Below the pieces are notes generated by a model. The model was not told the DNA's origin. It made no database searches and saw only the letters and a list, made by a program, of their open reading frames with translations. The position numbers were made by a program, and so were the translations under genes. From Candidatus Altimarinota bacterium (GTDB lineage: Bacteria; Patescibacteriota; Gracilibacteria; UBA1369): a stretch of DNA of 32,000 nucleotides. The DNA is taken from contig JBAZYK010000005.1 in NCBI GenBank assembly GCA_041659405.1, positions 1,796-33,795 of the forward strand. Direction: 5' to 3'. Positions 1 through 14,197 of the stretch are shown here, in pieces (the stretch's first letter is position 1; every line of letters starts with the position of its first letter).

Positions 1-127
1 GTGAATCCCCAACATGGTTTAACCTATTATTTTCTTAAATTCATTACCATTCTTGAGTGATTTTAGATATTTTTCTCTTTTCATTGCCTCTGCTCTCGTT
101 TTAAATAATTCTTTATATATAAGCATG
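1..127 (-). pseudogene. Truncated 3' fragment of the GIY-YIG nuclease gene (last 35 codons, stop codon and 18-nt 3' flank)
   Basis: 127/127 nt identical to 163..289. Read on the minus strand it encodes MLIYKELFKTRAEAMKREKYLKSLKNGNEFKKIIG*, the C-terminus of the intact gene at 181..420. The 5' two-thirds of the gene is missing and is replaced directly by the tRNA-like element at 128..173. Confidence 0.75.
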
Positions 128-173
128 GAATGCCCCGCCATGGCGGGGTGCCTTACCACTTGGTGAATCCCCA
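128..173 (-). repeat. tRNA-like element copy H1, containing the 16-bp perfect palindrome CCCCGCCATGGCGGGG
   Basis: Minus strand reads TGGGGATTCACCAAGTGGTAAGGCACCCCGCCATGGCGGGGCATTC. It differs from copy H2 (446..492) by one substitution and one 1-nt indel. The first 11 nt of a third copy sit at the window edge (1..11). Confidence 0.7.
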
Positions 174-180
174 ACATGGT

Positions 181-420
181 TTAACCTATTATTTTCTTAA
201 ATTCATTACCATTCTTGAGTGATTTTAGATATTTTTCTCTTTTCATTGCCTCTGCTCTCGTTTTAAATAATTCTTTATATATAAGCATGAATGGAAGTCG
301 CTTTCTTGTTGATTTTACTCTTCCTTTATTGTGATAACTCAATCTTTGTTCTAAATCACTACTTTGTCCTATGTAACATTTCCCATCTTTCTTGCTCCTC
401 AACACATATACATAGTACAT
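181..420 (-). CDS. Small GIY-YIG domain nuclease (URI/UPF0213-like, 79 aa)
   Basis: 79-aa ORF. N-terminal YYVYVLRS...GKCYIGQSSDLEQRLSYHNKG matches the GIY...YIG motif pair. A conserved R (STRKR) and E (AEAMKREKYLK) follow. Confidence 0.9.
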   Translation of the reverse strand: MYYVYVLRSKKDGKCYIGQSSDLEQRLSYHNKGRVKSTRKRLPFMLIYKELFKTRAEAMKREKYLKSLKNGNEFKKIIG

Positions 421-433
421 ACTTCAGAATAAT

Positions 434-492
434 ATTCGACCCCCCGAATGCCCCGCCATGGCGGGGTGGCCTTACCACTTGGCGAATCCCCA
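434..492 (-). repeat. tRNA-like element copy H2 (pseudo-tRNA 5' part: acceptor, D-arm, palindromic anticodon-like arm, variable region, half a T-arm)
   Basis: Minus strand: TGGGGAT-TC-GCCA-AGTGGTA-AGGC-C-A-CCCCG-CCATGG-CGGGG-CATTC-GGGGG-GTCGAAT. The D-arm GCCAAGTGGTAAGGC is canonical. The anticodon-like loop has only 6 nt (CAT in the centre). The 3' T-stem and acceptor strand are absent, so this is not a functional tRNA as it stands. Confidence 0.45.
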
Positions 493-579
493 GTGTTTGA
501 ACGCACAATCTTGCAACGCTGTATGGCAAAATGTGCCCATTAAATTTAACAAAAAATGGCTGAAAGTCAACGTCATCAC

Positions 580-610
580 AAAAAGAGCCCTGATAGCAGA
601 GCTCTTTTTA
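580..610 (-). terminator. Putative intrinsic terminator of the minus-strand surface-protein operon
   Basis: AAAAAGAGC-(12 nt loop)-GCTCTTTTT inverted repeat, 27 nt downstream of the stop at 637. A- and T-tracts flank it, so it could act in both directions. The G/C core of the stem is short. Confidence 0.4.
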
Positions 611-636
611 ATTTGAATGTTTAATTATGATAACTT

Positions 637-3495
637 TTACGCTTTTCCTGTTTTTCCGGCTTTGCGTCTTAAGAAAAATGCAATTGGCAGTGTTAACAAC
701 AAATAATAACTTTCCGGGCCGGTTTGGGTAATTTCCAGTGGCAATGGCTCAGAAGAAGCCGCACCATGCAAAACGGTTGTAGTTGTTTTTGTTGTGCCGG
801 TTGCAGTTGCCGGCGTGGTTATGTTTACAGATACTGTTTCTGAAATTGCTTGATTAATAACTCCCGCAGCTGCTGGCGTTGTTGTGTTTGTGGAAACCGT
901 TTCTGAAATTGCCTGATTGATAAATCCTGTGGAAACCGGCGCAGAAGCGCTTGAAGAAAATCCTGTTTCAGCTGCAATTGATCCACTTTGCTCTGGGGCA
1001 ACCGGAGGTGTTGGGGCCGATGGGGCCTCTGTGTTGTCTACAACCGGTGCAGAAATTGAATCCGAACCTGACCCTAGGCCGCCATCTGATAATGGATCTG
1101 TCGGTGGATTTTTGGGCAAACTTGCTGAACCACTATATGGAACATAATCTGTTGGAGTAGTTGTTTTGGTGGCTGTTGGTTGGTTTTGAGCAATAGGCTC
1201 AACAATTGGCGTACCAGTTGTGGTTGGCTGGGTGTCTGGTGGTGCATCTGTCTTCTTTGGCTCATCTGTGGCGGCAGGGGCAACCGTTTTTTCAGCTGCC
1301 ACTGGCGACGAACAGATCGCAAATCCTCCCATTAACTGGCCATCGCTAACAGTTGTTAAATCAATGTTTGGAAGACTACCGGTGGTTGTTCCAGTGCTTG
1401 TCCCGCTGCCGGAACTTGTTGTTACTTGATCCGGATTTCCAAGAACCGTTTCAAGCGAAGTTGTAATTGGCTGTGGATTGCGCTGAGAATCTGTACAGGC
1501 TGTGCTTGAAGTTGGCGGAATAATGTTTCCATCGCGGACCAAAGTATTTCTTAAATCGGCAATTTCACGACTTAAAGTAGGTCTTAAAGAAGTCGTTTTT
1601 TGATCTGTGCTTAAAATTAAATCAACCAGTAACTGTTGTTTCAATCGATCACTACCGCTTGCAATTCTGCAGCTTTGATCGGCAATTTTATTTGATATAT
1701 TATCGTAAACGGCTTGCCATTGTTGATTTCTGTAGGCATCCTGAATGTCTTTATCCTGCTGCTGACAACTATTGAGAGTTGCAGGAGTTGTGGTCAAACC
1801 CGTGCCCCCGGTTGTAGTTGTTGTTGAGCCTGTTGTGGTCGTGGTCGTTCTTGTGTTTGAAGTCGATGTTGAAACCGCCCCTCCGGTTGTTAGTGTTGAT
1901 CCTCCTGTTGCTGTAGTTGATCCTCCTGTTGTTGTCGTTGGTGGAGTTACGCCCACTGTTGTCGATGTTGTTCCTCCTCCTGTTGTTAAATTTGTATTGG
2001 GAGTTGTTGAACTTGTGGTTGTGGTCGTAGAGCTTGTTGTGGTTGTTCCTCCTGTTGTAGGAGTTGTGGTTGGTGTTGTTGAGCTTGTGCTTGCCGTACA
2101 AGCATCATTCCAAGTTTTAAGATGAGAAATTGTTGAAGAGCTCAAAATATATTTATCCTGATTTGTGTAAAGTTCGCTTATTAAGAAGCAGTCATTTGGA
2201 TTGATTCGACTACAAACCGGAGCGCTTGGCGTGGATGAGGTTGATGATCCGCCCGTTGTTGGATTTGGCGTGGTTGAGCTGGAAGTTGGTCCTCCTACTG
2301 TTAAATTCGGAGATCCGGCCACTGCGGATGATGGTGGGGTTCCTCCTACTGTTAAATTCGGAGATCTTACTGCTGCAGATGTTGATGGTGTTCCTCCTAC
2401 TGTCATTGCCGGAGAACCTACTATTGTTGCCGACGGTGATCCTCCTACTGCGTTATTACCAACGGGTGCCGCATTATTCAATACTCCACTATTTGCTGCC
2501 GGAGCTTCCCTTAAATCTGGGATTTGGTTGCTGACTGCAGCCGCGGGCGTGTTACTAATACTTGGGGCTACTGCATTTGAAACCTGATTAGCTGCAGGAT
2601 TATTTGCAATGACTTGAGCGTTATTAGCAACCGCTGCCGCGCCTTGATTAGAAATAGGGGCCGGAGATGGATAATAAACATTGGTGTAATCTGGCTGAGA
2701 TAGCCCCGGTGAAACTTGGTTTATCAAGTTACTAACGTTAGGGGCTGCTGCAGGTGAACGTAAGGCGGAAAGATCAGCGCCAAAATTATTTCCGGAAGTT
2801 GTGGTACTTGTACTTGCTTTTGGAGCATATGTATCGATAGCGCAAGTTTGAGGTACCGCTGTGATATCACCCTTTAAGTTACTGCTTGATCTAAAATAAA
2901 TTGCTGCAGCCACTCCACCTAAAACCAGCAAAACTCCACCAACAATCAAAGCGATTTTCAGATGAGACATTGGTTGGTTTTCCGGTGGCGATGTGAGTTC
3001 GGTTAAACTTAAATCGGTCGCATAAAAGTCTGATGACAATTGCGCGGGATTTTTAACCGGCACTTCTGCCTGTGGCTGACCTGTACCTTTTTGAAGATTG
3101 GTAAAAGAAGTCGCTTCGACTGCCGGTTTTGGAGCTGTGGCTGTTTCCGGTACAGCTTCTTTTTTGACTGGAGCGGTGGCTGGTTCCGGTTCCACCACGG
3201 TTTCTTTTTCAGCAGTTTCAGTCGCAGCCGGAGTTTCCGGTGCAGCCGGAGTTATAGACTCAAGCGAGATTGGTTTCGGCTTTACTTCTTCAGGTGCTTT
3301 TTCCGGCAAAGCTTGAACAACCGGCATAGAAGTTTCCGCTTTTCCATCAACATTAAAAAAAGTCGAAGTATCATTTGCTACGCTGCTTTTAGGTTCGGCG
3401 CTTGGCACGGAAGCAAGACCCGCATCGCCCGTATTTGGGCTTGTGCCGCCCGTGCCCATGCCGTTTCCGGCATTTAAGTTTGTGTCTGGTTCCAT
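637..3495 (-). CDS. Thr/Ser/Pro-rich mucin-like surface protein with an N-proximal TM helix and a C-terminal tripartite sorting signal (952 aa)
   Basis: 952-aa ORF. TM helix LKIALIVGGVLLVLGGVAAAIYF at about aa 190. Long T/S/G/P tracts (TTTTSSTTTTTSSTT...). A Cys-bracketed non-repetitive domain (CQQQDKDIQDAYRNQQW...TAC). The C-terminus reads ...LEITQTGPESYYLLLTLPIAFFLRRKAGKTGKA, i.e. motif, hydrophobic stretch, basic tail. Confidence 0.8.
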   Translation of the reverse strand: MEPDTNLNAGNGMGTGGTSPNTGDAGLASVPSAEPKSSVANDTSTFFNVDGKAETSMPVVQALPEKAPEEVKPKPISLESITPAAPETPAATETAEKETVVEPEPATAPVKKEAVPETATAPKPAVEATSFTNLQKGTGQPQAEVPVKNPAQLSSDFYATDLSLTELTSPPENQPMSHLKIALIVGGVLLVLGGVAAAIYFRSSSNLKGDITAVPQTCAIDTYAPKASTSTTTSGNNFGADLSALRSPAAAPNVSNLINQVSPGLSQPDYTNVYYPSPAPISNQGAAAVANNAQVIANNPAANQVSNAVAPSISNTPAAAVSNQIPDLREAPAANSGVLNNAAPVGNNAVGGSPSATIVGSPAMTVGGTPSTSAAVRSPNLTVGGTPPSSAVAGSPNLTVGGPTSSSTTPNPTTGGSSTSSTPSAPVCSRINPNDCFLISELYTNQDKYILSSSTISHLKTWNDACTASTSSTTPTTTPTTGGTTTTSSTTTTTSSTTPNTNLTTGGGTTSTTVGVTPPTTTTGGSTTATGGSTLTTGGAVSTSTSNTRTTTTTTGSTTTTTGGTGLTTTPATLNSCQQQDKDIQDAYRNQQWQAVYDNISNKIADQSCRIASGSDRLKQQLLVDLILSTDQKTTSLRPTLSREIADLRNTLVRDGNIIPPTSSTACTDSQRNPQPITTSLETVLGNPDQVTTSSGSGTSTGTTTGSLPNIDLTTVSDGQLMGGFAICSSPVAAEKTVAPAATDEPKKTDAPPDTQPTTTGTPIVEPIAQNQPTATKTTTPTDYVPYSGSASLPKNPPTDPLSDGGLGSGSDSISAPVVDNTEAPSAPTPPVAPEQSGSIAAETGFSSSASAPVSTGFINQAISETVSTNTTTPAAAGVINQAISETVSVNITTPATATGTTKTTTTVLHGAASSEPLPLEITQTGPESYYLLLTLPIAFFLRRKAGKTGKA
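800..925 (-). repeat. Two in-frame ~63-bp tandem repeats inside the 952-aa CDS
   Basis: ctgtttctgaaattgcttgattaataa (from ~834) recurs as ccgtttctgaaattgcctgattgataa (from ~897), period 63 bp. At protein level: FINQAISETVSTNTTTPAAAG / VINQAISETVSVNITTPATA. Confidence 0.8.
2285..2455 (-). repeat. About four in-frame 51/48-bp tandem repeats inside the 952-aa CDS
   Basis: cctcctactg starts at 2291, 2342, 2393 and 2441. cctcctactgttaaattcggagatc is identical at 2291 and 2342. At protein level: (G/R)SPNLTVGGTPPSSAVA-type 17-aa units. Confidence 0.85.
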
Positions 3496-3534
3496 ATTGT
3501 TTTTGTGTTAATTTTTATTTTTATTTATCTGATT

Positions 3535-3564
3535 ATTTTAGCACTTTTTGGCTTTTTTTTGCAA
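3535..3564 (-). promoter_or_regulatory. Possible internal sigma70-type promoter for the 952-aa gene
   Basis: Minus strand reads TTGCAA-N18-TAAAAT, about 40 nt upstream of the ATG at 3495. Confidence 0.35.
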
Positions 3565-3608
3565 TTGCTGAAATCCGGCATTTTACCTTATTCCAGAGCT
3601 TTTTCCGT

Positions 3609-3719
3609 TTAGTTTATCGCGCCAAAAAATGGGAGAATCATGCCCAAAACCAGGGTTACTACCATAATAATTCCAACTACCTGCATAATTTTTCTTTGAG
3701 TTTTGTTCATGTTGTTCAT
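3609..3719 (-). CDS. Possible 36-aa single-TM micro-protein (below the ORF-track cutoff)
   Basis: Hand translation of the minus strand: MNNMNKTQRKIMQVVGIIMVVTLVLGMILPFFGAIN*. It starts 10 nt after the stop of the 767-aa gene and has a basic N-terminus followed by one hydrophobic helix. There is no homology evidence. Confidence 0.3.
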   Translation of the reverse strand: MNNMNKTQRKIMQVVGIIMVVTLVLGMILPFFGAIN

Positions 3720-3729
3720 AATAAATAAA

Positions 3730-6033
3730 TTATTGGATCTGACCTATCACTAGAATATTCATAGTGAAAGTATCAATAACATTTTGGCTGTCGGAAACTT
3801 CCAACTTAACCGGATAACTTCCCGGAGTTGCAAAAGTATGAGTTGGTTTTCTGGTCTTTGAACTTTGACCATCTCCAAAATCCCAGCTGTATTTGGCGAT
3901 AGTTCCGGTGGAACAACGTGGATCCAATTCAATTGTTAATGGAGCCGGGCCGGCACTTGCAGTTGGCTCAAAGCAGGCCTTTAATGGCACAGGTCTGACG
4001 TTAATAGGAGTCGTAACGATTGATTTGGAATTATCGGATGCAATAGCTGTAACTTTGACGTTAAAAGTTCCAATTTGGGTGTATTTGTAAGTCACCTTGG
4101 AAACATCAATGCGTTTTGGGCTGCCATCGCCGAAGTCCCATTCATAACTGACGATTTGACCACTTGGATAGCTTGATCCGGAAGCGTCAAAAGTTATGGT
4201 CAATGGCACAACGCCTTCAACCACATCTGCAGTCACGCGGGCCTGTAATCCTTGTGGCAAAACTTTTACCACTAAAAGTGTACTGGCTGTTTTATTTTGA
4301 GAATCAACCACCATAAGAGTGGCGTTAAAAGTTCCTGCATCTTTATAAACGTAAGTAGACTGCTGGCCTGCCGCGTCATTAACACCATCACCGTTAAAAT
4401 CCCATTTATAATCTACGATGCTGCCATTGGCTTCTTTGCTTCCTGAGCCATCAAACTGGACCTGAAACGGTACAGTCCCGGTAATATAGCCGTCGGTTGG
4501 TTTAGCTTGAGCCGGAATAGTTGTAAATGAAGCAAGTGCCGCGCCGACAGGTGTTTCTAAAGTTATTTTTTGGCCGGCAGTTCCGGTTGTGCCTTTGTCA
4601 TCCGTAGCTGTTAAGTTTACTTCATAAGTTCCCGCAGTTTTGTAAGTATGAGTTGCTGTTCTGGTACTTGCTTTTGGAGTCTGATCGCCAAAATCCCATT
4701 CATATTTAACAATTTTCCGAGTCGGACTGGTTGAGTTTTCGCCCAAAAAAGTATATTGAGTTCCGGTGTAATAGTGACCATCTGTTGTTGGAATACTGAT
4801 CACCGCCGTTGGAACATTGGCCCCGGCAACTGTAATATCTTTAGAAACAACAGTTGATTGAAGCGTGTTATCTGTAATGCGTAAATTAACCGTGTAAGTT
4901 CCGGCCTGATCAAAAGTGTGTTCAATTTTTGCACCTTTGCCGTCATTGAAAACGTTTTTATTGTTAAAATCCCATTCATAGGACTGGATCTCCCCTGCCG
5001 GAGCGGAAGATGCCGAAGCATCAAATTTAACCACCAATGGCGCGGGGCCGCTATCCGGAGTCGCCGTAAAATCGGCATTCAATTTAATATTGGAAATCGT
5101 AACTATGTCCGTAAAACTTTGTGATGTTTCTTCACCGGTTGTTTTATCCTTTAGATTAACCGTTAAATTTACATCAAAGCGGCCGTTGTTTCTGCCTTTA
5201 TCTTTATAAGTATGAGATGGAGATTGAACCGTAGAATTTTCACCATCGCCAAAATCCCACAAGAAAGATAAAATTTCATATTTCTGAGTATTGATCGGTA
5301 ATTTTGTACCATCAAATTTAATTAAAATTGGAGCGGTTAAACCAAGCGGAGTCGCAGGATCTGTAACAATTGAACTGGTTGTTGCTTTTGGAACAGCAAC
5401 TTTTTTGGAACTTAAGAAAAGATAAGTTCCAACCCAAACGGAAACCAAAAAGATCAGTAAAAATCCGGAAACGGCGGCCTGTTTGAAACCTTTGTTTTTT
5501 GATTCTTTATCGTCTTTTCTGGCCATGGCCGTACGGAACAGACCAATGATTGCAACAATGAAAAGCGCAATCGAGAAAAACCCAAAAACCACACTCACCA
5601 AACTGATTAAAGTGTTGATGAAAGTTGCTGTATCCAACCCTAAAGCCTTCGCCATTGGGTTATCGCCATTTGTTCCTGTTTGAGCCACGAAAATGAGTAC
5701 CAACAAAATTAAAAGTGCAATTGAACATCCAAAAAAGCCTAAAACGCCATAAATAACTTTTCGTGTATTTGGAGGACGTCTAACCGGAGCAGCTGTGCCA
5801 GGGGTAACCGGACGTGGCTGTTGGTTGAGCGGCTGATTAATTGGTGGCTTTGAAGCCGGTTGCGCGCTTGCCTGCAGTGGAGCCTGAGTTTGTGGCTGGG
5901 CAGGAGCCGGCATTGCGCCTTGCGCCTGTGCGGGAGCCATAGGCTGAACCGAAATTGGCGTAGGTTGCACCGGTGGCGTAGCGGCCGGTTGTCCCTGATT
6001 TTGTGGATTTTGGTTTGAGTTTGGTGTATCCAT
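3730..6033 (-). CDS. Polytopic membrane protein with a P/Q-rich N-terminus and six PKD-like domains (767 aa)
   Basis: Three hydrophobic helices (VIYGVLGFFGCSIALLILLVLIFVA; FINTLISLVSVVFGFFSIALFIVAIIGLF; AAVSGFLLIFLVSVWVGTYLFL). Six repeats follow, each carrying the PKD signature WDFGDG or a variant (FLWDFGDGENS, YEWDFNNKN, YEWDFGDQT, YKWDFNGDG, YEWDFGDGS, YSWDFGDGQ). Confidence 0.9.
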   Translation of the reverse strand: MDTPNSNQNPQNQGQPAATPPVQPTPISVQPMAPAQAQGAMPAPAQPQTQAPLQASAQPASKPPINQPLNQQPRPVTPGTAAPVRRPPNTRKVIYGVLGFFGCSIALLILLVLIFVAQTGTNGDNPMAKALGLDTATFINTLISLVSVVFGFFSIALFIVAIIGLFRTAMARKDDKESKNKGFKQAAVSGFLLIFLVSVWVGTYLFLSSKKVAVPKATTSSIVTDPATPLGLTAPILIKFDGTKLPINTQKYEILSFLWDFGDGENSTVQSPSHTYKDKGRNNGRFDVNLTVNLKDKTTGEETSQSFTDIVTISNIKLNADFTATPDSGPAPLVVKFDASASSAPAGEIQSYEWDFNNKNVFNDGKGAKIEHTFDQAGTYTVNLRITDNTLQSTVVSKDITVAGANVPTAVISIPTTDGHYYTGTQYTFLGENSTSPTRKIVKYEWDFGDQTPKASTRTATHTYKTAGTYEVNLTATDDKGTTGTAGQKITLETPVGAALASFTTIPAQAKPTDGYITGTVPFQVQFDGSGSKEANGSIVDYKWDFNGDGVNDAAGQQSTYVYKDAGTFNATLMVVDSQNKTASTLLVVKVLPQGLQARVTADVVEGVVPLTITFDASGSSYPSGQIVSYEWDFGDGSPKRIDVSKVTYKYTQIGTFNVKVTAIASDNSKSIVTTPINVRPVPLKACFEPTASAGPAPLTIELDPRCSTGTIAKYSWDFGDGQSSKTRKPTHTFATPGSYPVKLEVSDSQNVIDTFTMNILVIGQIQ

Positions 6034-6060
6034 TTTTTTATTTTTAAAATATTGAAAAAT

Positions 6061-9000
6061 TTATTTTTGCTTCTTTGATTTAAGCACTCTCATGCTAACA
6101 AAGAGTATACCAAATCCGGCTATAGTTACAAGCACGCCCGGAATTTCATTGGAATTGGTTCCGGCAAAAATATCTACTCCAAGTTGACTCTTGATTGGAG
6201 CGTTCGGTACATCAAAAACAATGTCTTTAATAACGGAACTTTTAGTTCCCTTATCATCAACAACCGTAAGTTTTACGCTGTCCTGGCCGTAGCTTTTGAA
6301 AAATTGAGTTGTCCATGTTCCGGGAGCTGTTGTTTTGTAATCTTCATCATCATCTTTAATGCCATTTCCATTGGAATCGTAATAAATATTTTTATCAATA
6401 ATGTAAGATTTGATCGGCCCGCGGGAATCGCTAAAATTAAAAATTACCGTTCCACTATCCCCTTGCAGATGGATTCTGTTATCGGTAACACTTGGCGCTG
6501 GAGCACTGGTTAAACGCGCCTCAAGTTTTTGCAAAGTTTGTGTTGGCTGTGTTGGTTGCTGGATTGGAGTAACCACAGGCACAGGCTTAACTATCTGCTG
6601 AGTTACTTGTTGGGTTTTTGTAACTACAAGCACAGGAGCTTTTATATTCACAAAATTTATAACGCTTGCCTGATTTCCCTGGTCGTCCGCAACAACTAAT
6701 TTAGCCCTGAAAACTCCGTAATCCGGATATTCATAAGTTGGAGCCTGCTCGGTAGAATCAAGATCATTGTCTTTAATACCGTCGCCGTTAGCATCGACAG
6801 CAAGATTAAAATCCCAGCTGTATTTTGCAAGGTTTGCACCATTTACCGCATCGGCAGTGGAATTATTGGTAAATTGGATTTTTTTGCCATCCAGCTGCTG
6901 TGAGGTGAAAGCGGCAACCGGTGGCGCAGTCTTGGCATCAACATACATCATAACCGGATCGGAAATTGATTCCGCACCATTGTTGTCGATTACCTTTAAT
7001 TTAACTTTGACGCCATCTTTATATGGCTTGGTGTAAACATAACTGACGTTTGGTTTGTTGTAATCATTAGTCAAAACATTGTCGGCAAAACCGTTGCCTT
7101 CAAAATCCCAAATGTAGGTAGCAATACTGCCGTTGGCATCCGGATCGGTTGAACTGGATGAAAAACTGACGGTATCACCGACCATAACATTGGTACGATC
7201 AACGTTTAATTTGGCAACCGGAGACTTATTAGGCCCGTTTGTTACTGCCAGTTTTGGAATCATGCTGTCATCAAGACCATCCTGAGTATTAAAAGTTTGA
7301 TTATCGTTATCGGTCGCCATTACGGCAAACCCATAAGTCTTTTTTTGGCCTTCTACTCCATTTGTACCAATTACGATAGTAGTATTTGGAGATTCGCTAA
7401 GCTGCAATCCTTTTTGATCTTCCGGATTATCAATATCGTAATACCACCAGCGATAGCTAACGATTTTGCCATCCGGATCATTTGCGCCGTTGGCGGTTAC
7501 GTTAACATTAACCGGAGTTGTAGTTGAAGTTCCTGCTGGAATTGCCGTTAAGCCCTGAACAACCGGTGGCTGTGTCGCTACATTAATATGGATTTCATCA
7601 ATAGGACTAACCTGTGTAGCGTCATCCTGATTGGTTACTTTTAGAGTTATTTTATAGTAAGGTTTATCCTTTGGTGTTAATTCGGTAAAGGTATGAGTAA
7701 CCTGTTTTTTGGTACTTAAAGTGCCATCACCAAGATCCCAACTGTAATTCAGTTTCTTGCCTGTGCCATCAATATTGATTGATTTGCCGGCATCGAAAAC
7801 GAATTGAGTTTTTCGATTTGCGGTAATTGTTGAGCTTGTATCACTTAGATCGTTACCATCCTGAGTTAACGAAATGGCCGCCACAGGTATATTATCGGAA
7901 GCGATAAATACTTTTCTAATAGTATTGTTTTGATTGTTGTTATTATCAAAAACCATTAATTTTGCGATAAAACTTCCGGATTTATTATAAGTATGTTTAA
8001 CAGTGAAAGGACTTGCGGTAATGGATCCATTTTCTTTTGCTCCATCACCGGTATCCAATTCATAAGAAACACCATTAAGACTGCTCATGACAAAATTTAC
8101 ATCAACGCTGCCGGCATTTAACTTGGCAGTAATTGGTTTTCCATCATCTCCCCAACCTACATCAAGATCATTATCAACGGTGATTCTTTGTTCCTGAGTT
8201 GTGACCTTTGCAATTTCCGCCGGATCACGAACACTTAAAGTGATGGTGTACTTACCTTTATTAAGTCTTACTTTTATTTTGGAAAGATTTTTGTCGGTAC
8301 TATAATCTTTAAAGAAGAGTACGCAGTCGTTTTCGGTTTTGCCATTTATATAAGTACAATTTCCCGGAGCGGTGCTGAATTCCCATCTATAGGCAATGTC
8401 TTCGCTGCTATCCGGATCATAACTTTTGGCACCATCCAAAATGTAAGTATTTGGTTGTGATTTGTCCGAATTATCGAAACTGAACTGGGCGACCGGTGGC
8501 TTTGAAACCACATGGATACGTACAACTGTCGAAGCATCATTTGAACCGTCACTAACACTTAGTGAAACATCATAATTGCCGGGCTCTTTAAAAGTATATT
8601 TAAGGGTATCAACATTTTTGGCCTCCGGAGGAGTTAGATCAATGCTGTTACCGCCCTTTGTGGCCAATTGCATAATTTTCCAGTCATAGGTTTTAACTTG
8701 ACTGTTTGCGCTGGCGGAAGCTGATCCATCGAATGTGGCCTGATCATTTAATTTTAATTCATTACCGTGAGTAACATTAATGCGGGCTGCAATCGAAGAA
8801 ACAACAATGTTGAAAATCTTGCGATCTGTAATGCCACGATCATCCGTTACTTCCAAAGTAACACGATAAGAACCTTCTTTTATGTATTTAACTGTCTGTA
8901 CCTGAGAAATAGTATCCGGCGGTCCTTCCACGGTATTCTTAGTATTGGATTTGTCACCAAAATCCCATTTTACTTTGGCAACCGGACTATTCTTAATGGT

Positions 9001-10824
9001 TGGATCATTAAAAGGTAAACCATTTCCGGTTTTAGTTTCACGTCCATCAAGGCTGATTCCGGTTTTGGCTTCTTCCGTAGTAATGGAAAGATCCTGAATG
9101 GAACTAAGTGAAATACCATTATTATCATATTTTGACATCCAGAAAGATTTTCCATTAACGGTTGCCTGTAAATTAATTCTGGATGATGGTGGCTTAACTG
9201 TAACCGTAGTGTAAACAATTCCATCAACTGGTTTTTTAGGGTTGTTTTGATCTTCCGGAGCGGCCACTTTTAATTTGACCACATAAGTTCCCGGATTTTG
9301 ATAAATACATTGACTCACAGTACCGGTTTTTTCACCACTGTTATCACCACAACTCCAGGTGAAATTATTATCCGGAATTGTATTGTTATTTGGATCAAGA
9401 CTCTTTAAAGCATCCAAATTAACAACCAGTGGAGCGTTTCCCTGGCTAATATCCGCATGAATTGCACTATAGACAAATTGCAGGTCCTTAACTTTTTCAT
9501 AAAGAGAAGACATATCTTTAACAATTTGGAGCATGGCGGCGTTATCCGGCACACTCTTAAGTGTTGGTAAAGCAGGACTTAAATCCGCTGCATGAACCAC
9601 GTCCACGAAAACCAAAGCTAATCCCTTTAAAATGGAATCCGCCTGACTGTTTAATGAAACGACATTTCCACGAATTATTTCAGATTGAAGATCATTTTTG
9701 TTTACCAATGTTTCAAGATCTCCGGTAACGTTATCAAAACTGGTCTGAATCTCGGGCAAATCGCTGGCCTGCTTGATGCGGGCGGAAAGTTCCGTTAATT
9801 GGCTATAGGCTTTAATAACAGCCTGGGCAAAATCCTGATTATTGGCGCCCATTAAACCGGTTTGTTCAACCGAACCCGGGGCCTGACTTGCCTGATCCAA
9901 AAAGGTATCCGCACCGGCTTCATTTTTAATGTCGTTGGTGTACGTACTGTAATTGGTTTTATACCAAAATTGTTCCCAATAAGTGTTTGGGTCTTTTTCA
10001 CTTGCAACCTCATCGATGGCTTTATCGGAAATCTTTAAATATTTATCATAAACCAGCAACATGTGCTGGGCTTTTTCCGATACCTGACTTAAAGATCCGG
10101 CTTTGACCAGTATGTTATTTAAAATATTCTTTTTATTCTGAAGAGTACTCTTTAATGTTTGTGGTGAGGTGATTTGTTTTTCCAAATCAACATTGATAAG
10201 CGTCAGCACATCTGTACGAATTTCGGAATAATTTTGATACGCGGTAAGAAAATCACGCGCAATCTGCTGAACGGCAATAGCGGCATAATTGAAAAATGCG
10301 CGTCGATCGGAAGTTGAAACTGTTCCGCCAGTGGCAGCTCCGTTAAGTGTATTGTTTTCTTTTCCGCTTGGAGCCTGCAAAACCGTGTTAACAATGGCGA
10401 AAGATCCCATAATAATCAAAAGACCCGTAACGGCATAGGTGATGGACTTTTTACCAACCTCGGTTTTATCTTCCTTGCCCATGGCTGTTACATAAAGCAC
10501 ACCTCCGTAAACAATTACCAAAACGGCAATTAAACCCAAAAAGCCTAGCGCAAAATTGGTTACATTACGAATGTAGTCTCGGGCAGTTGGGGCTTGCGTC
10601 AATGCCGGGGCGTAGCCGGCCGTGTCCGGAGCGGTAAGTCCGCCCTGAAAATTGGTAAAAGTGGTTTGTTCTCCACCGCCGCAAGAAAGAATGCCTTTGG
10701 TGGCATCACTTACGCTGCCGCAGAAATCAAACGCACCTGCCTGCATTGGCATGGTTAAGCTTAAAATCATGCCTAAAGTAAGCATGATTTCCTTTATTTT
10801 TGTGTTTTTCAGGATATTATTCAT
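6061..10824 (-). CDS. Giant surface protein: signal peptide, one VirB2/TrbC-like pilin module, a helical region, ~10 PKD-like domains and a C-terminal TM anchor (1587 aa)
   Basis: Signal-like N-terminus (...LSLTMPMQAGA). Pilin-type module FALGFLGLIAVLVIVYGGVLYVTAMGKEDKTEVGKKSITYAVTGLLIIMGSFAIVNTVL. PKD signatures (VKWDFGDKS, YSWDLGDGT, YIWDFEGNG, YSWDFNLAV and others). Acidic Ca-loop-like DANGDGIKDNDLD and DSNGNGIKDDDED. C-terminal VLVTIAGFGILFVSMRVLKSKKQK. Confidence 0.9.
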   Translation of the reverse strand: MNNILKNTKIKEIMLTLGMILSLTMPMQAGAFDFCGSVSDATKGILSCGGGEQTTFTNFQGGLTAPDTAGYAPALTQAPTARDYIRNVTNFALGFLGLIAVLVIVYGGVLYVTAMGKEDKTEVGKKSITYAVTGLLIIMGSFAIVNTVLQAPSGKENNTLNGAATGGTVSTSDRRAFFNYAAIAVQQIARDFLTAYQNYSEIRTDVLTLINVDLEKQITSPQTLKSTLQNKKNILNNILVKAGSLSQVSEKAQHMLLVYDKYLKISDKAIDEVASEKDPNTYWEQFWYKTNYSTYTNDIKNEAGADTFLDQASQAPGSVEQTGLMGANNQDFAQAVIKAYSQLTELSARIKQASDLPEIQTSFDNVTGDLETLVNKNDLQSEIIRGNVVSLNSQADSILKGLALVFVDVVHAADLSPALPTLKSVPDNAAMLQIVKDMSSLYEKVKDLQFVYSAIHADISQGNAPLVVNLDALKSLDPNNNTIPDNNFTWSCGDNSGEKTGTVSQCIYQNPGTYVVKLKVAAPEDQNNPKKPVDGIVYTTVTVKPPSSRINLQATVNGKSFWMSKYDNNGISLSSIQDLSITTEEAKTGISLDGRETKTGNGLPFNDPTIKNSPVAKVKWDFGDKSNTKNTVEGPPDTISQVQTVKYIKEGSYRVTLEVTDDRGITDRKIFNIVVSSIAARINVTHGNELKLNDQATFDGSASASANSQVKTYDWKIMQLATKGGNSIDLTPPEAKNVDTLKYTFKEPGNYDVSLSVSDGSNDASTVVRIHVVSKPPVAQFSFDNSDKSQPNTYILDGAKSYDPDSSEDIAYRWEFSTAPGNCTYINGKTENDCVLFFKDYSTDKNLSKIKVRLNKGKYTITLSVRDPAEIAKVTTQEQRITVDNDLDVGWGDDGKPITAKLNAGSVDVNFVMSSLNGVSYELDTGDGAKENGSITASPFTVKHTYNKSGSFIAKLMVFDNNNNQNNTIRKVFIASDNIPVAAISLTQDGNDLSDTSSTITANRKTQFVFDAGKSINIDGTGKKLNYSWDLGDGTLSTKKQVTHTFTELTPKDKPYYKITLKVTNQDDATQVSPIDEIHINVATQPPVVQGLTAIPAGTSTTTPVNVNVTANGANDPDGKIVSYRWWYYDIDNPEDQKGLQLSESPNTTIVIGTNGVEGQKKTYGFAVMATDNDNQTFNTQDGLDDSMIPKLAVTNGPNKSPVAKLNVDRTNVMVGDTVSFSSSSTDPDANGSIATYIWDFEGNGFADNVLTNDYNKPNVSYVYTKPYKDGVKVKLKVIDNNGAESISDPVMMYVDAKTAPPVAAFTSQQLDGKKIQFTNNSTADAVNGANLAKYSWDFNLAVDANGDGIKDNDLDSTEQAPTYEYPDYGVFRAKLVVADDQGNQASVINFVNIKAPVLVVTKTQQVTQQIVKPVPVVTPIQQPTQPTQTLQKLEARLTSAPAPSVTDNRIHLQGDSGTVIFNFSDSRGPIKSYIIDKNIYYDSNGNGIKDDDEDYKTTAPGTWTTQFFKSYGQDSVKLTVVDDKGTKSSVIKDIVFDVPNAPIKSQLGVDIFAGTNSNEIPGVLVTIAGFGILFVSMRVLKSKKQK

Positions 10825-10885
10825 AGTTTTTGTTTTTATTTATCATATTATTTTAGCATAAAATCCACTTTTCTTTAAGGGCTAA

Positions 10886-11914
10886 TTAAAGACCCGGGTT
10901 TGTGGGCAAACTTGCCGGCGAACTTGAGCCGGCTTTTTCGGAGCCGGTGGTCGGTTGCAGGGTTACAACGGTGTTCACAATTCCAAAAGCAGCCATGGCC
11001 AATAAAAGACCTATGGTAGCCCCAATAAAGACTTTCTTGGCTTTAGCGGTGTTATCTTCTTTACCAAAAGCAATAACATAAAGGTAACCTCCATAAATGA
11101 ACATAATTGCTGCGACAGTTGCGGCGAATCCGGAAATAAAATTGGTTAATTTTACCACAAATTGCGCGGCGACTACGGTATTTGGCAGTGTTTTTCCCTG
11201 ACTTGGGAAAAGTACATCTTTGATCGCAAATTCGGAAATTCCAATCACAATCAGACCTACAACGGCCCACATAATCTGTTTTTTAACCTTACCCTGAACT
11301 TCTTCATTGCCGGCGCCAATAACCAAACGGAAACCTCCAATTACAATCATCAAAATTGCCAAAGCGGCGGCAAAATATTCCATAAAACTGTAGAAGCCTT
11401 TGATGGTTTCGGTCCCCTGTTTGGCCGCATCTAAAAGCTCCGCCTGGCTGCGATAAATCTCGCCCTGAGCGCCCCAAAATACTTTTACAACCTGATCGGC
11501 AATAATAATAACGAGCAGACCAATAATCGCATATTTAAGGTTTTCTTTTTGTTTATCCGCGATCTGATCAACCTGGCGGCCCGAGGTAATCAGACGAATT
11601 CCGGAAACAATAATCATAAAAATGGCAATAGTGCCCATTACATATTTTGCAAAATCAATCGCATACCAAACGGCGCTTGTGATGTTGCTTGCGCCCGATT
11701 CAATCGAGGCGTTGGCATTGGCGTTGGTGTTGTAAGTGGGAAGTCCAATATTGTTTTCGAGTTGATTTAAAACTCCACCCGGAGACTGAGCATTGGTTTG
11801 GGCATTTGCCGGAACTGTCAGGGTCAAAACAAGGCTGGCCAAAATCAAAAATCCACACAGTGGAATAACTGTTTCTTTTAGAATTTCGCTAATTTTTTGG
11901 ACGAACTTTTTCAT
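10886..11914 (-). CDS. Secreted/membrane protein made of three tandem VirB2/TrbC-like pilin modules (342 aa)
   Basis: Signal peptide (...LTLTVPANAQ). Three modules of hydrophobic helix, G-rich turn, charged loop, hydrophobic helix: IAIFMIIVSGIRLITSGRQVDQIADKQKENLKYAIIGLLVIIIA; LAILMIVIGGFRLVIGAGNEEVQGKVKKQIMWAVVGLIVIGIS; VAAIMFIYGGYLYVIAFGKEDNTAKAKKVFIGATIGLLLAMAAFGIVNTVV. Confidence 0.85.
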   Translation of the reverse strand: MKKFVQKISEILKETVIPLCGFLILASLVLTLTVPANAQTNAQSPGGVLNQLENNIGLPTYNTNANANASIESGASNITSAVWYAIDFAKYVMGTIAIFMIIVSGIRLITSGRQVDQIADKQKENLKYAIIGLLVIIIADQVVKVFWGAQGEIYRSQAELLDAAKQGTETIKGFYSFMEYFAAALAILMIVIGGFRLVIGAGNEEVQGKVKKQIMWAVVGLIVIGISEFAIKDVLFPSQGKTLPNTVVAAQFVVKLTNFISGFAATVAAIMFIYGGYLYVIAFGKEDNTAKAKKVFIGATIGLLLAMAAFGIVNTVVTLQPTTGSEKAGSSSPASLPTNPGL

Positions 11915-11934
11915 TTTTATTTTAAAATTTATTT

Positions 11935-12984
11935 TTATTGACCCGGCAGAGTCCCGCCGGTTGGTTGTGTCACTTGTCCGTTGCCGCTGGTGCCAAAATT
12001 TCCGGAAATAATTGTGCTCACAATGGCAAAAGATCCATACATGATAATAATTCCAACAAGAGCTGAAACAATGATTCTTTTGGCTTTCCCCTGAGTTTCT
12101 TCATTGCCCGCGGAGGCAATATACATAATGCCGCCCGCAACCAGAGCTATGATGGCGATAGGGCTAACGATACTTAAAACCATGTTGGTGAATCCCACCA
12201 ATTCACTTACGCCCTGAGCGGGATTGAATGATGGCGCCGCTCCTCCAACAGTGGGGTAACGTGTAACATCAACTTTGTAGAAGACGTTGTTGATAATCGG
12301 ATCGGCAATAATAATCAAGAATAAGCCCAGCGCGCCATAAGCAAGGTTCTTTTTATCCAGGGCAATTTTGTCTTCCGCGCTGCCCATTGCAATCATGCGC
12401 ATGCCACTTCTGACAACGAAAAAAACCGAAATCGCGCCAATAAGATATTTGATGAAAGTTACGATAAATTTGGCTTTTTGGTCAAAAATAGTCACCGAAC
12501 GGATAATCGCATTTGGGTCTTTTAAAAAGCCTCCCTGCGTACAGGCAAGTCCGGAAAAGTCCTTACCGTTTTCACAATAAACCGAGAAAATACGGGCAAG
12601 ATCTCCGGAAAACCCAACAACCGCCAAGCCGATTATGCCGTAAATGATGGTCGATCTTTGCTTGGTATAAACTTCTTCATTTCCGCCGCCAATAACCATT
12701 CTGATGCCGGCATAGACGATTAAGCCTACAGCAACAGCTCCCAAAAGATAGCGCACGTTTTGGATAACGCTTAAGGCTAAGCTAAAAACTTGAGCGGAAG
12801 CACTGCCTTGCGCCGGAGCCTGCAAGCCGCTGTAGCCCGGCGTGGAAATACTTGGCAAAGGCAAAGTGGTGGTGGTCTTTGCGTTTTCGGCTAAAGCTAA
12901 AGGCATACTCGCAGTTAATACAACCGCTAAAGTTGCGCTAAAAATTGCCAATTTGACCAAGAATTTGTTTATTTTTTTGAGCAT
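11935..12984 (-). CDS. Paralogous protein with three tandem VirB2/TrbC-like pilin modules (349 aa)
   Basis: Signal peptide (...ASMPLALAEN). Modules: VAVGLIVYAGIRMVIGGGNEEVYTKQRSTIIYGIIGLAVVGFS; ISVFFVVRSGMRMIAMGSAEDKIALDKKNLAYGALGLFLIIIA; IAIIALVAGGIMYIASAGNEETQGKAKRIIVSALVGIIIMYGSFAIVSTII. It has the same architecture as the gene 20 nt downstream. Confidence 0.85.
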   Translation of the reverse strand: MLKKINKFLVKLAIFSATLAVVLTASMPLALAENAKTTTTLPLPSISTPGYSGLQAPAQGSASAQVFSLALSVIQNVRYLLGAVAVGLIVYAGIRMVIGGGNEEVYTKQRSTIIYGIIGLAVVGFSGDLARIFSVYCENGKDFSGLACTQGGFLKDPNAIIRSVTIFDQKAKFIVTFIKYLIGAISVFFVVRSGMRMIAMGSAEDKIALDKKNLAYGALGLFLIIIADPIINNVFYKVDVTRYPTVGGAAPSFNPAQGVSELVGFTNMVLSIVSPIAIIALVAGGIMYIASAGNEETQGKAKRIIVSALVGIIIMYGSFAIVSTIISGNFGTSGNGQVTQPTGGTLPGQ

Positions 12985-13014
12985 ACCGACAAAATACGCT
13001 TAATAAATCTATTT

Positions 13015-13042
13015 ATTATACCAGACAATGGGTCTTTGTGAA
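13015..13042 (-). promoter_or_regulatory. Sigma70-type promoter with an extended -10, driving the pilin/PKD operon
   Basis: Minus strand reads TTCACA-N16-(TGG)TATAAT. The -10 is consensus with an upstream TG. It lies about 30 nt upstream of the ATG at 12984. Confidence 0.6.
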
Positions 13043-13059
13043 AGGCAAAGAGCGCGAAA

Positions 13060-13244
13060 CTTGCTCACAGCTTTTTCAGGTGGTTTTCCGGAGGGAATGG
13101 CTTCTTGGCGAACGCTTCGCCTGTTCGCTGCGGCTACCATGTACGCCTCCGCGAAGGTCTCGCATCATGATGCTCGACCGGCTGCGCTCGCAATGTCGCC
13201 AAGAAGCCATTCCCTCCGGAAACTTGGAGAAACCTGTGGGCAAG
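13060..13244 (+). ncRNA. Candidate structured RNA or palindromic element: long G+C-rich hairpin with a perfect 27-bp stem (13085..13111 / 13196..13222) around an 84-nt core
   Basis: TTTCCGGAGGGAATGGCTTCTTGGCGA is exactly complementary to TCGCCAAGAAGCCATTCCCTCCGGAAA. An outer 11-bp helix pairs 13060..13070 with 13234..13244, and partial pairing bridges the two. Every non-Watson-Crick pair is G-U only when read on the + strand. The region is visibly more G+C-rich than its flanks. No known RNA family was recognised. Confidence 0.4.
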
Positions 13245-13347
13245 GACGTAGTATTTGCAAAACGCTATTTTCTCAAAATCTTTGTATATTTAACTTGTTT
13301 TTAGTAGGATGGGCCCCTGATTGCGCTTGGATTCTAATAAATTATTT

Positions 13348-13638
13348 ATGGCATTTGAAAATGCTCCAAAAGATTTGCTTGTAATAAAAAAAGTCATGGA
13401 AGAAGAAGTAATGCCTGCAATTAAAGAAAAAAGGTACTTCGTCGCCCAAATGGAAATAGGAAATATCCTTGGTGGAGTAGATCAAGATCTGGTGAGAGAC
13501 GAACATTGTGGCATGGGCTTAATTGCAAGTCTAAAAGCTTTAGAAAAGGCGTTGAAAAAAGAAAAAGTTGATCAACTTGAAGGTGGAATATTAAGAGTTA
13601 GGGCTTATTTAGCCCAAGCGTTGATGTATTATCGGTAA
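13348..13638 (+). CDS. Hypothetical small soluble protein (96 aa from the first ATG)
   Basis: ORF MAFENAPKDLLVIKKVMEEEVMPAIKEKRYF...LAQALMYYR. The ORF track extends it to a TTG at 13321, but the ATG at 13348 is preferred. No recognisable motif. Confidence 0.45.
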   Translation: MAFENAPKDLLVIKKVMEEEVMPAIKEKRYFVAQMEIGNILGGVDQDLVRDEHCGMGLIASLKALEKALKKEKVDQLEGGILRVRAYLAQALMYYR

Positions 13639-13652
13639 AGATTTGTTTTAAT

Positions 13653-13707
13653 GCCGCGCAACAATATCCGACCAGCTAGTCCATGCGTTGGCGTGGCCTT
13701 TCTCCTT
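13653..13707 (+). terminator. Possible terminator hairpin after the 96-aa ORF
   Basis: GCCGCGCAAC...GTTGGCGTGGC forms an imperfect ~10-bp stem (one bulge, one G-U) followed by CTTTCTCCTT. The loop is long (~24 nt), so this is weak. Confidence 0.25.
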
Positions 13708-13754
13708 GAATAACACGTAGTTTTTTTGAAAAAAGCGGTTTTTCTAAAATCCGC

Positions 13755-13783
13755 TTGAAAAGCTTGGGGGATGTTTGTATACT
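13755..13783 (+). promoter_or_regulatory. Sigma70-type promoter of the secE-nusG-rplK-rplA operon
   Basis: TTGAAA (13755-13760), 17-nt spacer, TATACT (13778-13783), about 80 nt upstream of the secE ATG. Confidence 0.6.
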
Positions 13784-13861
13784 GGCATTCGGGTTTGGGC
13801 CGAGCTTTTTAAAGGTGTGGTCGTCTCAATAATTACTATCATTTCTTTTGTCTAAATCAAC

Positions 13862-14197
13862 ATGAAACGTTTTATAGAAGCCACTAAAAACTATTTTCAG
13901 GACAGTTATCAGGAATTAAAAAAGGTAACCTGGCCAACTCGTAATAAGGCTATTCGTCTGACATTGATTGTTTTGGGTTTTTGTTTAGTTGCAGCCATTG
14001 TAATGGGTGCTTTAGATCTTACTTTTAATACAGGTTATCGTTATTTGGTTGATTATGCTGCAAAAGTTGCTCCAGCTCCGGCTCAGGTTGAACAAACCGC
14101 TCCATCAACTCCATTAAGCGCAGAGGGATCACCAATTACAATAGCTCCGGGGTCAGTTAAGGTTGATGCTGTTCCGGCTACAACTCCTACAAAATAA
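13862..14197 (+). CDS. secE: Preprotein translocase subunit SecE (with a C-terminal extension)
   Basis: ELKKVTWPTRNKAIRLTLIVLGFCLVAAIVMGALD is the SecE signature (KKVxWP plus a single TM helix). It sits immediately upstream of nusG. Confidence 0.9.
   Translation: MKRFIEATKNYFQDSYQELKKVTWPTRNKAIRLTLIVLGFCLVAAIVMGALDLTFNTGYRYLVDYAAKVAPAPAQVEQTAPSTPLSAEGSPITIAPGSVKVDAVPATTPTK

Follow-up and report, generated by a model that had tools for sequence, protein, structure and literature searches.

A stretch of 32,000 nucleotides (nt) from a Candidatus Altimarinota bacterium (assembly GCA_041659405.1, contig JBAZYK010000005.1, positions 1,796 to 33,795), here called the window, encodes on its reverse strand a protein of 1587 amino acids (aa) in which a single membrane-spanning hairpin of the VirB2/TrbC class is fused to an all-helical domain, ten PKD/Ig-like domains and a C-terminal membrane anchor. 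We call this protein the giant. It is the third product of an operon-like cassette of four genes, preceded by two proteins with three tandem hairpins each and followed by a protein with six PKD domains. The hairpin is likely to be an assembly module that joins other VirB2-like hairpins, in the membrane or in a pilus, and the four-gene operon probably builds a surface structure that binds a host or a particle.

The hairpin of the giant and its relatives

The open reading frame (ORF) of the giant, 6061-10824 on the reverse strand, is as a first-pass annotation of this DNA had described it. Behind a signal peptide, within which AlphaFold2 places a helix at aa 8-23, the protein shows the layout of a pilin, namely two hydrophobic helices with a short charged loop, GKEDKTEVGKKS, between them. 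A hydropathy scan sets the hydrophobic stretches at aa 85-117 and 127-152, and the hairpin helices of the AlphaFold2 model span aa 81-113 and 118-149. Pfam assigns aa 84-146 to PF18895 (T4SS_pilin; 33.8 bits against a gathering cut-off of 26.6, E = 3.6e-8). A score above the cut-off identifies the module as a VirB2/TrbC-type hairpin of type IV secretion systems (T4SS), not as a type IV pilin. The first-pass annotation had spoken of a pilin module and had named a proper alignment or hidden Markov model (HMM) as the test that could undo it; the PF18895 match upholds homology to a pilin family and places the class with the VirB2/TrbC hairpins of T4SS. PF04956 (TrbC/VirB2) gives the giant no match, and the nearest NCBIfam model, which stays below its cut-off, describes a pilin-like conjugal transfer protein of the integrative and conjugative elements (ICEs) of mycoplasmas. 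Searches of the PDB by phmmer with the module, and with a profile of 13 modules, returned no VirB2 or TraA chain, such distant transmembrane (TM) hairpins perhaps lying beyond their reach.

Homology of this module to the third modules of both upstream neighbours, read from the letters in the first pass, is confirmed by blastp: aligned over 79 aa, the giant's module (aa 75-160) and the third module of the 342-aa protein share 46% identity, and with the third module of the 349-aa protein the figure is 36%. The other four neighbour modules also match, the third module of the 342-aa protein being the closest of the six. PF18895 recognizes three stretches in each neighbour, at 84.3 bits in the 342-aa protein and 70.4 bits in the 349-aa protein. 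The best stretch for PF04956 falls on the third module in both, reaching 31.7 bits in the former against a cut-off of 27.9 and 24.5 bits, below that cut-off, in the latter.

The hairpin is also the most conserved segment of the giant. Across 41 orthologues it is 61.7% identical to the hairpin of the window protein, as against 17-46% elsewhere: 32-46% in the PKD domains, 27% in the C-terminal anchor region and 17-27% in the helical domain, the most variable part. Polar residues within its TM helices (N90, Y106, Y111, T113, S141, N146 and T147) are invariant or nearly so in a 42-member alignment, a pattern indicative of specific helix packing rather than mere anchoring. Moreover, in 16 genomes each of the cassette's seven hairpins is orthologous to the hairpin in the same position elsewhere, with 86-102 bits between hairpins in the same position and 10-54 bits between different positions, which speaks for a hetero-assembly of defined composition.

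One genome per GTDB species was scanned with a giant-derived motif, which yielded 60 loci (L numbers), labelled almost all as Peregrinibacteria, Peribacteria, Gracilibacteria/Altimarinota or unclassified Patescibacteria. Related genomes carry a stand-alone pilin of ~130 aa (mostly 129-160), for instance at L032 9836-10234 and L026 9821-10234, in L031 and L033, and in ~38 others; some sources annotate members of this family as 'pilin'. In the two loci checked, L026 and L032, its gene lies directly downstream of murB, and murA then follows in L032. Within a genome, the giant's hairpin and the stand-alone pilin share 57-61% identity, a likeness partly selected by the giant-derived motif, while the next-best of the modules compared reaches ~40%. 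Closeness to the stand-alone pilin, joined to the strongest conservation in the protein, is what would be expected of a subunit that enters a pilin-type assembly. A profile search with the hairpin alignment gave, among the matches listed, almost entirely stand-alone pilins of ~115-230 aa (mostly ~130) and no large fusions. One locus with a stand-alone pilin only, L042 (JBLIGW010000024.1), is filed under a gammaproteobacterial metagenome-assembled genome (Oceanicoccus sp.), probably by a binning error. At L030 a PilB-type (T2SSE) ATPase gene (10001-12811) lies ~0.8 kb from the stand-alone pilin gene; as 1 of 60 loci, this is probably coincidence.

Hairpins of this family are joined to other partners as well. 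P0149 (L065 589-2427) and P0150 (L066 1361-3217) each place an SLT lytic transglycosylase (VirB1 domain) behind four VirB2-like hairpins, and P0005 joins one PF18895 hairpin to a Big_5 domain. Together with the PKD fusions, these proteins make a VirB2-like hairpin plus an extracytoplasmic domain a recurring design. Tandem VirB2-like hairpins also occur in P0061, P0093, P0098 and P0103, with up to eight in P0098 (820 aa); no description of tandem-fused VirB2-like proteins was found in the open-access papers and preprints searched. The gene for P0149 adjoins one for a YkuD L,D-transpeptidase, and that for P0150 is near an R3H (jag-like) gene, yidC and rnpA, genes usually found close to the replication origin.

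The ectodomain, the family and the cassette

Ahead of the hairpin lies a conserved segment (aa 32-84) with a mean identity of 41%, in which F56, F59, G61 and P66 each reach 90% conservation or more among 42 family members; behind the hairpin a Gly/Thr-rich linker leads to the helical domain. AlphaFold2 with a 42-sequence family alignment gave a mean predicted local distance difference test score (pLDDT) of 74.7 and a predicted template modelling score of 0.63, superseding an unusable run on a 5-sequence alignment (mean pLDDT 50). In this model aa 171-446 are divided among many helices, each ~8-41 residues long, and pLDDT there rises to 97. The first-pass annotation had foreseen a helical stalk of ~300 aa; the helices are there in the prediction, but many and shorter, and the region, as judged from the helix assignments, does not look like one long helix or a coiled-coil stalk. 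Pfam finds nothing within these ~280 aa, and a Foldseek search of the PDB with the predicted N-terminal 495 aa gave no match, VirB5/TraC included (best E = 0.14, TM-score <0.2).

The PKD array is recognized above cut-off by PKD_4 (PF18911, 196 bits) and PKD (PF00801, 146 bits) in seven stretches each. An HMM trained on the giant's own repeats resolves ten domains over aa 461-1529, in line with the count of about ten given in the first pass. A V/Q/P/T-rich linker precedes the tenth, within aa 1387-1453. Both acidic loops picked out earlier are present, at aa 1344 and 1483; the one in PKD9, DANGDGIKDNDLD, reads DSxGDGxKDNDxDS in the consensus of the 42-member alignment and probably binds calcium.

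The C-terminal TM helix with its KSKKQK tail likewise holds up (hydrophobic stretch aa 1560-1583). Such an anchor is present in 80 of 124 family members and is thus optional; about a third of the family stops right after the last PKD domain, without it. The helix of the window protein is preceded (within positions 6064-6200) by GVDIF, the local form of a loosely conserved family motif, G-A-N-[LI]-F, that sits ~7-15 residues before the C-terminal TM helix. This motif occurs in 9 of 17 giants, whereas of 40 other proteins that end in a TM helix with a basic tail just 3 have it, one of them a split giant. It was accordingly rejected as a general sorting signal, being specific to the giant family, and could mark processing or a juxtamembrane contact. 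Among NCBIfam models for sortase (LPXTG) and other sorting domains, none matches the giant.

The architecture is widespread. A search with aa 40-495 of the giant against 1.84 billion cluster representatives (clusters at 50% identity) returned 110 matches at E <= 1e-30. One N-terminal hairpin followed by PKD repeats is found in ~103 of the best 150 representatives, at lengths of 1200-2666 aa (mostly 1450-1750), and >100 clusters at 50% identity share the giant's architecture. The 42-member family alignment is collinear end to end, PKD array included. Such recurrence of a collinear architecture makes the fusion more than a chance event.

Within the cassette the intergenic gaps are 20 nt between the first and second genes, 61 nt between the second and the giant, and 27 nt between the giant and the fourth gene (Table 1). 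The promoter-like site ahead of the first gene agrees with the consensus at 11 of 12 positions and is the best in positions 1-14000, a consensus match that does not imply function. The order triple-hairpin, triple-hairpin, giant, six-PKD protein is kept in ~20 species of Peregrinibacteria and Peribacteria. Both triple-hairpin genes and the giant were recovered intact in 16 loci, and the six-PKD protein follows the giant in ~18 species. In most loci the cassette stands divergent beside secE-nusG-rplK-rplA; it is core and vertically inherited, not a mobile element. The complete chromosomes OY970195.1, OZ246407.1 and OY782391.1 are among its carriers. The linkage is kept in a distant relative, L003, where the PKD repeats are spread over separate genes (4938-12264: a hairpin-PKD protein of 518 aa, then separate PKD proteins of ~1150 aa and 756 aa). 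In L012 (UBA1369) the giant is split into a 588-aa hairpin-plus-helical ORF and a 1089-aa PKD-plus-anchor ORF. The L003 and L012 forms may be genuine split forms or assembly frameshifts. The outcome that the first-pass annotation had named as counting against it, ordinary PKD proteins unlinked to pilin-like genes, is not borne out in these ~20 species or in L003.

The six-PKD protein matches PKD_4 at 281 bits in six stretches. Its TM2-TM3 region aligns with the module profile in an hhalign comparison of 18 orthologues (probability 86.6%, E = 4.5e-6, 62 columns in register), although scores between TM segments run inflated, and there is a weak NCBIfam match to a pilin-like ICE protein (E = 0.052). 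These matches are no more than suggestive of a degenerate VirB2-like hairpin, by which the six-PKD protein might be anchored like the giant.

Downstream of the cassette, a 952-aa protein is set apart from the fourth gene by a 234-nt gap and its own promoter-like site (3564-3535). A same-strand gene of 480-590 aa follows the fourth gene in the closest relatives only, and membership of the 952-aa protein in the cassette is uncertain. The 952-aa protein is rich in Ser/Thr/Pro/Gly over very long stretches and has a single TM helix near aa 174-203; its C-terminus, ...LEITQTGPESYYLLLTLPIAFFLRRKAGKTGKA, resembles a sortase-type tripartite signal but lacks the proline of LPXTG. Other genes of the window are housekeeping genes (secE, nusG, rplK, rplA, dut, tmk, folD, purF and purD). 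An 847-aa protein (29002-31545, reverse strand) with three SLH and three FlgD_ig domains is likely an S-layer- or cell-wall-anchored component, and a 197-aa protein (20914-21507, forward strand) has one FlgD_ig domain; SLH proteins, at 6 of 64, are the commonest family among the large ORFs of the related loci. A 465-aa ORF (19029-20426, reverse strand) without a Pfam or NCBIfam match sits where the base composition is unusual (GC 0.457, AT skew -0.27).

Table 1. Features of the cassette and its surroundings, in window coordinates and in order of transcription
Feature	Positions	Strand	Basis or remark
Promoter-like site: TTCACA, 16-nt spacer, TATAAT preceded by TG	13015..13042	-	~30 nt upstream of the cassette's first gene
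Gene 1, 349 aa: signal peptide, three tandem PF18895 hairpins, six TM helices	11935..12984	-	Pfam, TM scan
Gene 2, 342 aa: signal peptide, three tandem VirB2-like hairpins, six TM helices	10886..11914	-	Pfam, TM scan
Gene 3, the giant, 1587 aa, ATG start	6061..10824	-	ORF read from sequence
Giant aa 1-31: signal peptide ending AGA, then F	10732..10824	-	Read from sequence; putative cleavage site
Giant aa 32-84: conserved 53-aa segment, predicted extracellular	10573..10731	-	Predicted topology; Cys35, Cys48, motif TxFTxFxGGLxxP
Giant aa 85-152: VirB2-like hairpin (TM1, charged loop GKEDKTEVGKKS, TM2)	10369..10572	-	PF18895, AlphaFold2, hydropathy
Giant aa 171-450: predicted all-helical domain, fold without known match	9475..10314	-	AlphaFold2
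Giant aa 461-1529: ten PKD/Ig-like domains	6238..9444	-	Pfam, self-trained HMM
Giant aa 1344-1356: acidic loop DANGDGIKDNDLD, inside PKD9	6757..6795	-	Read from sequence
Giant aa 1483-1495: acidic loop DSNGNGIKDDDED, inside PKD10	6340..6378	-	Sequence, family alignment
Giant aa 1560-1587: C-terminal TM helix and KSKKQK tail	6064..6147	-	TM scan; hydrophobic stretch 1560-1583
Gene 4, 767 aa: P/Q-rich N-terminal tail (predicted cytoplasmic), three TM helices, six PKD domains	3730..6033	-	Pfam
Gene 4 aa ~135-210: TM2, charged loop, TM3; possible degenerate VirB2-like hairpin	5404..5631	-	hhalign
952-aa Ser/Thr-rich (mucin-like) membrane protein, downstream of the cassette	637..3495	-	No Pfam/NCBIfam match

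A possible membrane platform or extruded pilus

We tentatively favour, short of calling it probable, a reading in which the giant is a cell-surface adhesin and its VirB2/TrbC-type hairpin is the constant anchor and assembly module in a membrane-embedded platform. The giant would be exported by Sec and its signal peptide removed. The hairpin would lie in the cytoplasmic membrane, its two ends facing outward and its charged loop facing the cytoplasm, a topology that would point the helical domain and the ten PKD repeats outward, the latter with an end-to-end span of several tens of nm by a rough estimate. In the window protein the C-terminal TM helix with its KSKKQK tail would come back to the membrane; the positive-inside rule fits both the hairpin loop and this tail being inside. 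The giant's hairpin would then pack beside the stand-alone ~130-aa pilin and the six specialized hairpins of the triple-hairpin proteins, and the degenerate hairpin of the six-PKD protein may also join. From such a platform the two PKD fibres would rise at the cell surface to attach the cell to a host or a particle, and in the preferred version the platform would stay at or in the membrane with no extrusion as a long pilus.

Assembly of this kind is supported by the close spacing of the four genes (20, 61 and 27 nt) behind one strong promoter-like site, with an order kept in ~20 species, and by the occurrence of both fused and split forms (L003, L012). Location at the membrane is slightly favoured by the second, C-terminal anchor of 80 of the 124 family members. 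It is favoured further by the partner proteins, which are tandem proteins with six TM helices, and by the SLT domain of the related multi-hairpin proteins, which cuts peptidoglycan and must act near the membrane. The absence of a T4SS ATPase gene near any of the 60 loci points the same way. By Pfam, the window holds no T4SS gene beyond the pilin families of the cassette, with VirB4, VirD4 and VirB6 all lacking, and none of these three was found in the ~±10-kb flanks of 60 related pilin loci. The flanks were screened by Pfam on neighbouring ORFs, by a Pfam census of 64 large ORFs and by a search for Walker-A motifs. The Walker-A screen is the stronger negative, since the census covers 25 of 104 families; the P-loop ORFs of 450-1100 aa in the 60 loci belong to PilB, FtsH, UvrA and EngA only. 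An adhesive function is suggested by the PKD repeats and by the presumed role of giant surface proteins in related bacteria of the candidate phyla radiation (CPR) (PMC8080830).

Several points weigh against the membrane platform. Given its closeness to a stand-alone pilin, the giant's hairpin would suit the lattice of a pilus no less, and this likeness is in part selected, the stand-alone pilins having been retrieved with a giant-derived motif. Where VirB2-family proteins have been characterized, they are known chiefly as builders of an extruded pilus, and we know of no experiment that has shown the location of a PF18895 protein in any CPR bacterium. A protein anchored at both ends and looping out several tens of nm is an unusual adhesin design, and the adhesive role draws solely on the general behaviour of PKD repeats.

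Somewhat less likely in our view is an extruded pilus of the VirB2 type in which the giant serves as a minor or tip pilin that bears the adhesin; an analogy to a minor or tip pilin had been drawn in the first-pass annotation. A T4SS encoded elsewhere in the genome would extract the stand-alone pilin from the membrane and polymerize it, the giant, admitted to this lattice through its hairpin, would present its PKD array on the filament, and the triple-hairpin proteins would form a priming or tip complex, by analogy with the type IV minor pilins and PilY1, or with VirB5. Membership of PF18895, the PF04956 (TrbC/VirB2) match of a neighbour's third module, the strong conservation of the hairpin (61.7%) and its 57-61% identity to the stand-alone pilin all suit such a pilus, as does the fixed set of specialized paralogues, which resembles a minor-pilin set, and the third or so of the family without a C-terminal anchor. 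In the solved structures of VirB2-type pili the two termini of the pilin point outward, and a C-terminal extension is therefore conceivable on steric grounds. As to machinery, 2,417 of 3,035 Patescibacteria assemblies are reported to have VirB4, VirB2-like pilins lie near virB4 in 1,135 of 1,948 assemblies, arrays of 2-11 pilin genes are on record, the Southlakia array of VirB2-like pilins is reported to be essential, and in the class Gracilibacteria the T4SS genes are reportedly dispersed (PMC12102498, PMC12857230). Assemblies of Peregrinibacteria, whose VirB4 status was sought, do not occur in the supplementary tables of PMC12102498.

Nevertheless, the pilus has to be reconciled with the lack of VirB4, VirD4 and VirB6 in the window and in the flanks of the 60 loci. 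It also has to be reconciled with the C-terminal TM anchor of the window giant and of 80 of 124 relatives, by which a subunit at the tip would stay tied to the cell, a poor fit to such a position. The helical domain is unlike VirB5/TraC by Foldseek, and no report of an observed VirB2-type pilus in a CPR bacterium was found in the literature searched. To our knowledge, tandem triple hairpins have no precedent in a pilus. The first-pass annotation had spoken of a filament or platform, words that take in the pilus and the membrane reading alike; its analogy to a minor or tip pilin is one of these two. The most specific form of the pilus reading is marginally less probable still: a VirB2-class surface filament of Peregrinibacteria with the adhesin built into a pilin polypeptide, in which the stand-alone 130-aa pilin is the shaft, the giant sits in the lattice, the triple-pilin proteins provide six specialized subunits, and the whole is encoded in the core genome, away from conjugation machinery.

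It is improbable that the cassette forms part of a T4SS channel, with the triple-hairpin proteins in place of a missing VirB6-type platform and the giant as a VirB5-like stalk or contact protein to the host, for uptake or delivery of molecules. Reportedly, no VirB6 homologue can be detected in the class Gracilibacteria, where further T4SS components do occur (PMC12102498), each partner protein is polytopic, spanning the membrane with six TM helices, the cassette is core and vertically inherited, and the four-hairpin SLT (VirB1 domain) fusions tie multi-hairpin proteins to a T4SS-type function; but Pfam and Foldseek detect no similarity of sequence or fold to VirB6 or VirB5, VirB4 is unlinked in all 60 loci, and analogy is the sole footing. 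Nor is there much to recommend an ordinary membrane-anchored PKD adhesin whose hairpin is a convenient two-TM anchor without specific contact to the neighbours' products: giant PKD-rich membrane proteins presumed to act in host attachment are common in related CPR bacteria (PMC8080830), and Big_5 and SLT ectodomains also stand behind PF18895 hairpins, but a mere anchor would hardly be 62% identical where the C-terminal anchor region is 27%, keep its polar TM residues invariant or nearly so, stay in strict synteny with two triple-hairpin genes in ~20 species and belong to a set of seven hairpins that are all positionally orthologous.

Significance and comparison with known systems

VirB2-like pilins belong to the few gene sets without which a cultured CPR bacterium reportedly fails to grow as an epibiont, although what structure they form in it is not known (PMC12857230, PMC11665869). 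The cassette offers a natural experiment on this family, for it ties one hairpin covalently to a large, easily labelled ectodomain, at a chromosomal site kept throughout the clade and beside six fixed paralogous hairpins. Locating the giant would show where a VirB2-like hairpin resides in a monoderm CPR cell, in a filament or in the membrane, and whether such hairpins are assembly modules for surface adhesins. The domain repertoire of a family regarded as small single-hairpin proteins is widened to include tandem hairpins and fusions to PKD, Big_5 and SLT domains. As the first-pass annotation had supposed, the architecture appears to be unreported: no account of a large adhesin that carries a VirB2-like hairpin was found in the open-access papers and preprints searched, although public domain-architecture listings may show such combinations. 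The hairpin and the PKD domains are each known ingredients; their combination and the clade-wide cassette are not. Should the filament reading prove true, FimH-like two-domain adhesins would gain their first counterpart of the VirB2 type in the giant, and tandem-fused pilins theirs in the triple-hairpin proteins, and the cassette would be a clue to the way in which this CPR clade makes contact with its hosts.

Two-domain tip adhesins are known from several kinds of pili, including FimH of the chaperone-usher class, the type IV minor pilins CofB and TcpB with their C-terminal domains, and SpaC and RrgA of sortase-assembled pili. The giant shares their design, in which a pilin-type module is fused to a receptor-binding part and encoded beside other subunits. 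It differs in the class of the pilin, in an ectodomain ~10 times larger and in a second membrane anchor at the far end; its incorporation into a filament is putative.

Closer to the T4SS, VirB5/TraC is a helical protein at the pilus tip (PMC12857230). Like the giant, it has an all-helical extracellular domain tied to VirB2-family proteins and a presumed role in contact, but for the helical domain of the giant neither Foldseek nor Pfam gives a match to the VirB5 family. The "extended" VirB6 proteins (PMC12857230) are also T4SS-family membrane proteins enlarged by a big hydrophilic domain beyond the TM helices; they belong to another family with five or more TM helices, and no homology to the giant was detected.

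Among surface proteins of CPR bacteria, the giant PKD/Ig-repeat proteins of predators and epibionts such as Vampirococcus lugosii (PMC8080830) are similarly very large, membrane-associated and presumed to serve host recognition or attachment, within the same broad CPR clade, but they have not been reported with a VirB2-like hairpin or with linkage to multi-hairpin genes. The Pam pilus, a CPR-specific surface filament of Ig-like folds joined by donor-strand exchange, is reported mainly from Saccharimonadia and Microgenomatia, and its pilins are without a VirB2-like hairpin (bioRxiv 10.64898/2026.03.03.709456). Membership of the cassette in that system was considered and rejected. The PamR model (NF058578), whose cut-off is 300 bits, gives a single weak hit of 37.9 bits, to the 767-aa neighbour, and neither VirB2 nor T4SS is mentioned in the Pam paper (bioRxiv 10.64898/2026.03.03.709456).

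The nearest comparison is with the VirB2/TrbC pilins themselves (PF04956, PF18895), which have in common with the giant a signal peptide, two hydrophobic helices and a short charged loop. The VirB2-like pilins of Patescibacteria, as far as these sources describe them, further resemble the cassette in having several divergent paralogues per genome, often as tandem genes (PMC12102498; Wang et al. 2023, as cited in PMC12857230). Whereas known VirB2 pro-pilins are small proteins of ~100-150 aa with a single hairpin, the hairpin of the 1587-aa giant is joined to ~1,430 further residues, and each of its partners carries three hairpins per chain. The cassette, unlike known VirB2 pilins, adjoins ribosomal-protein genes and not virB4, and its paralogues are fixed in position across species where the reported pilin arrays vary between 2 and 11 genes.

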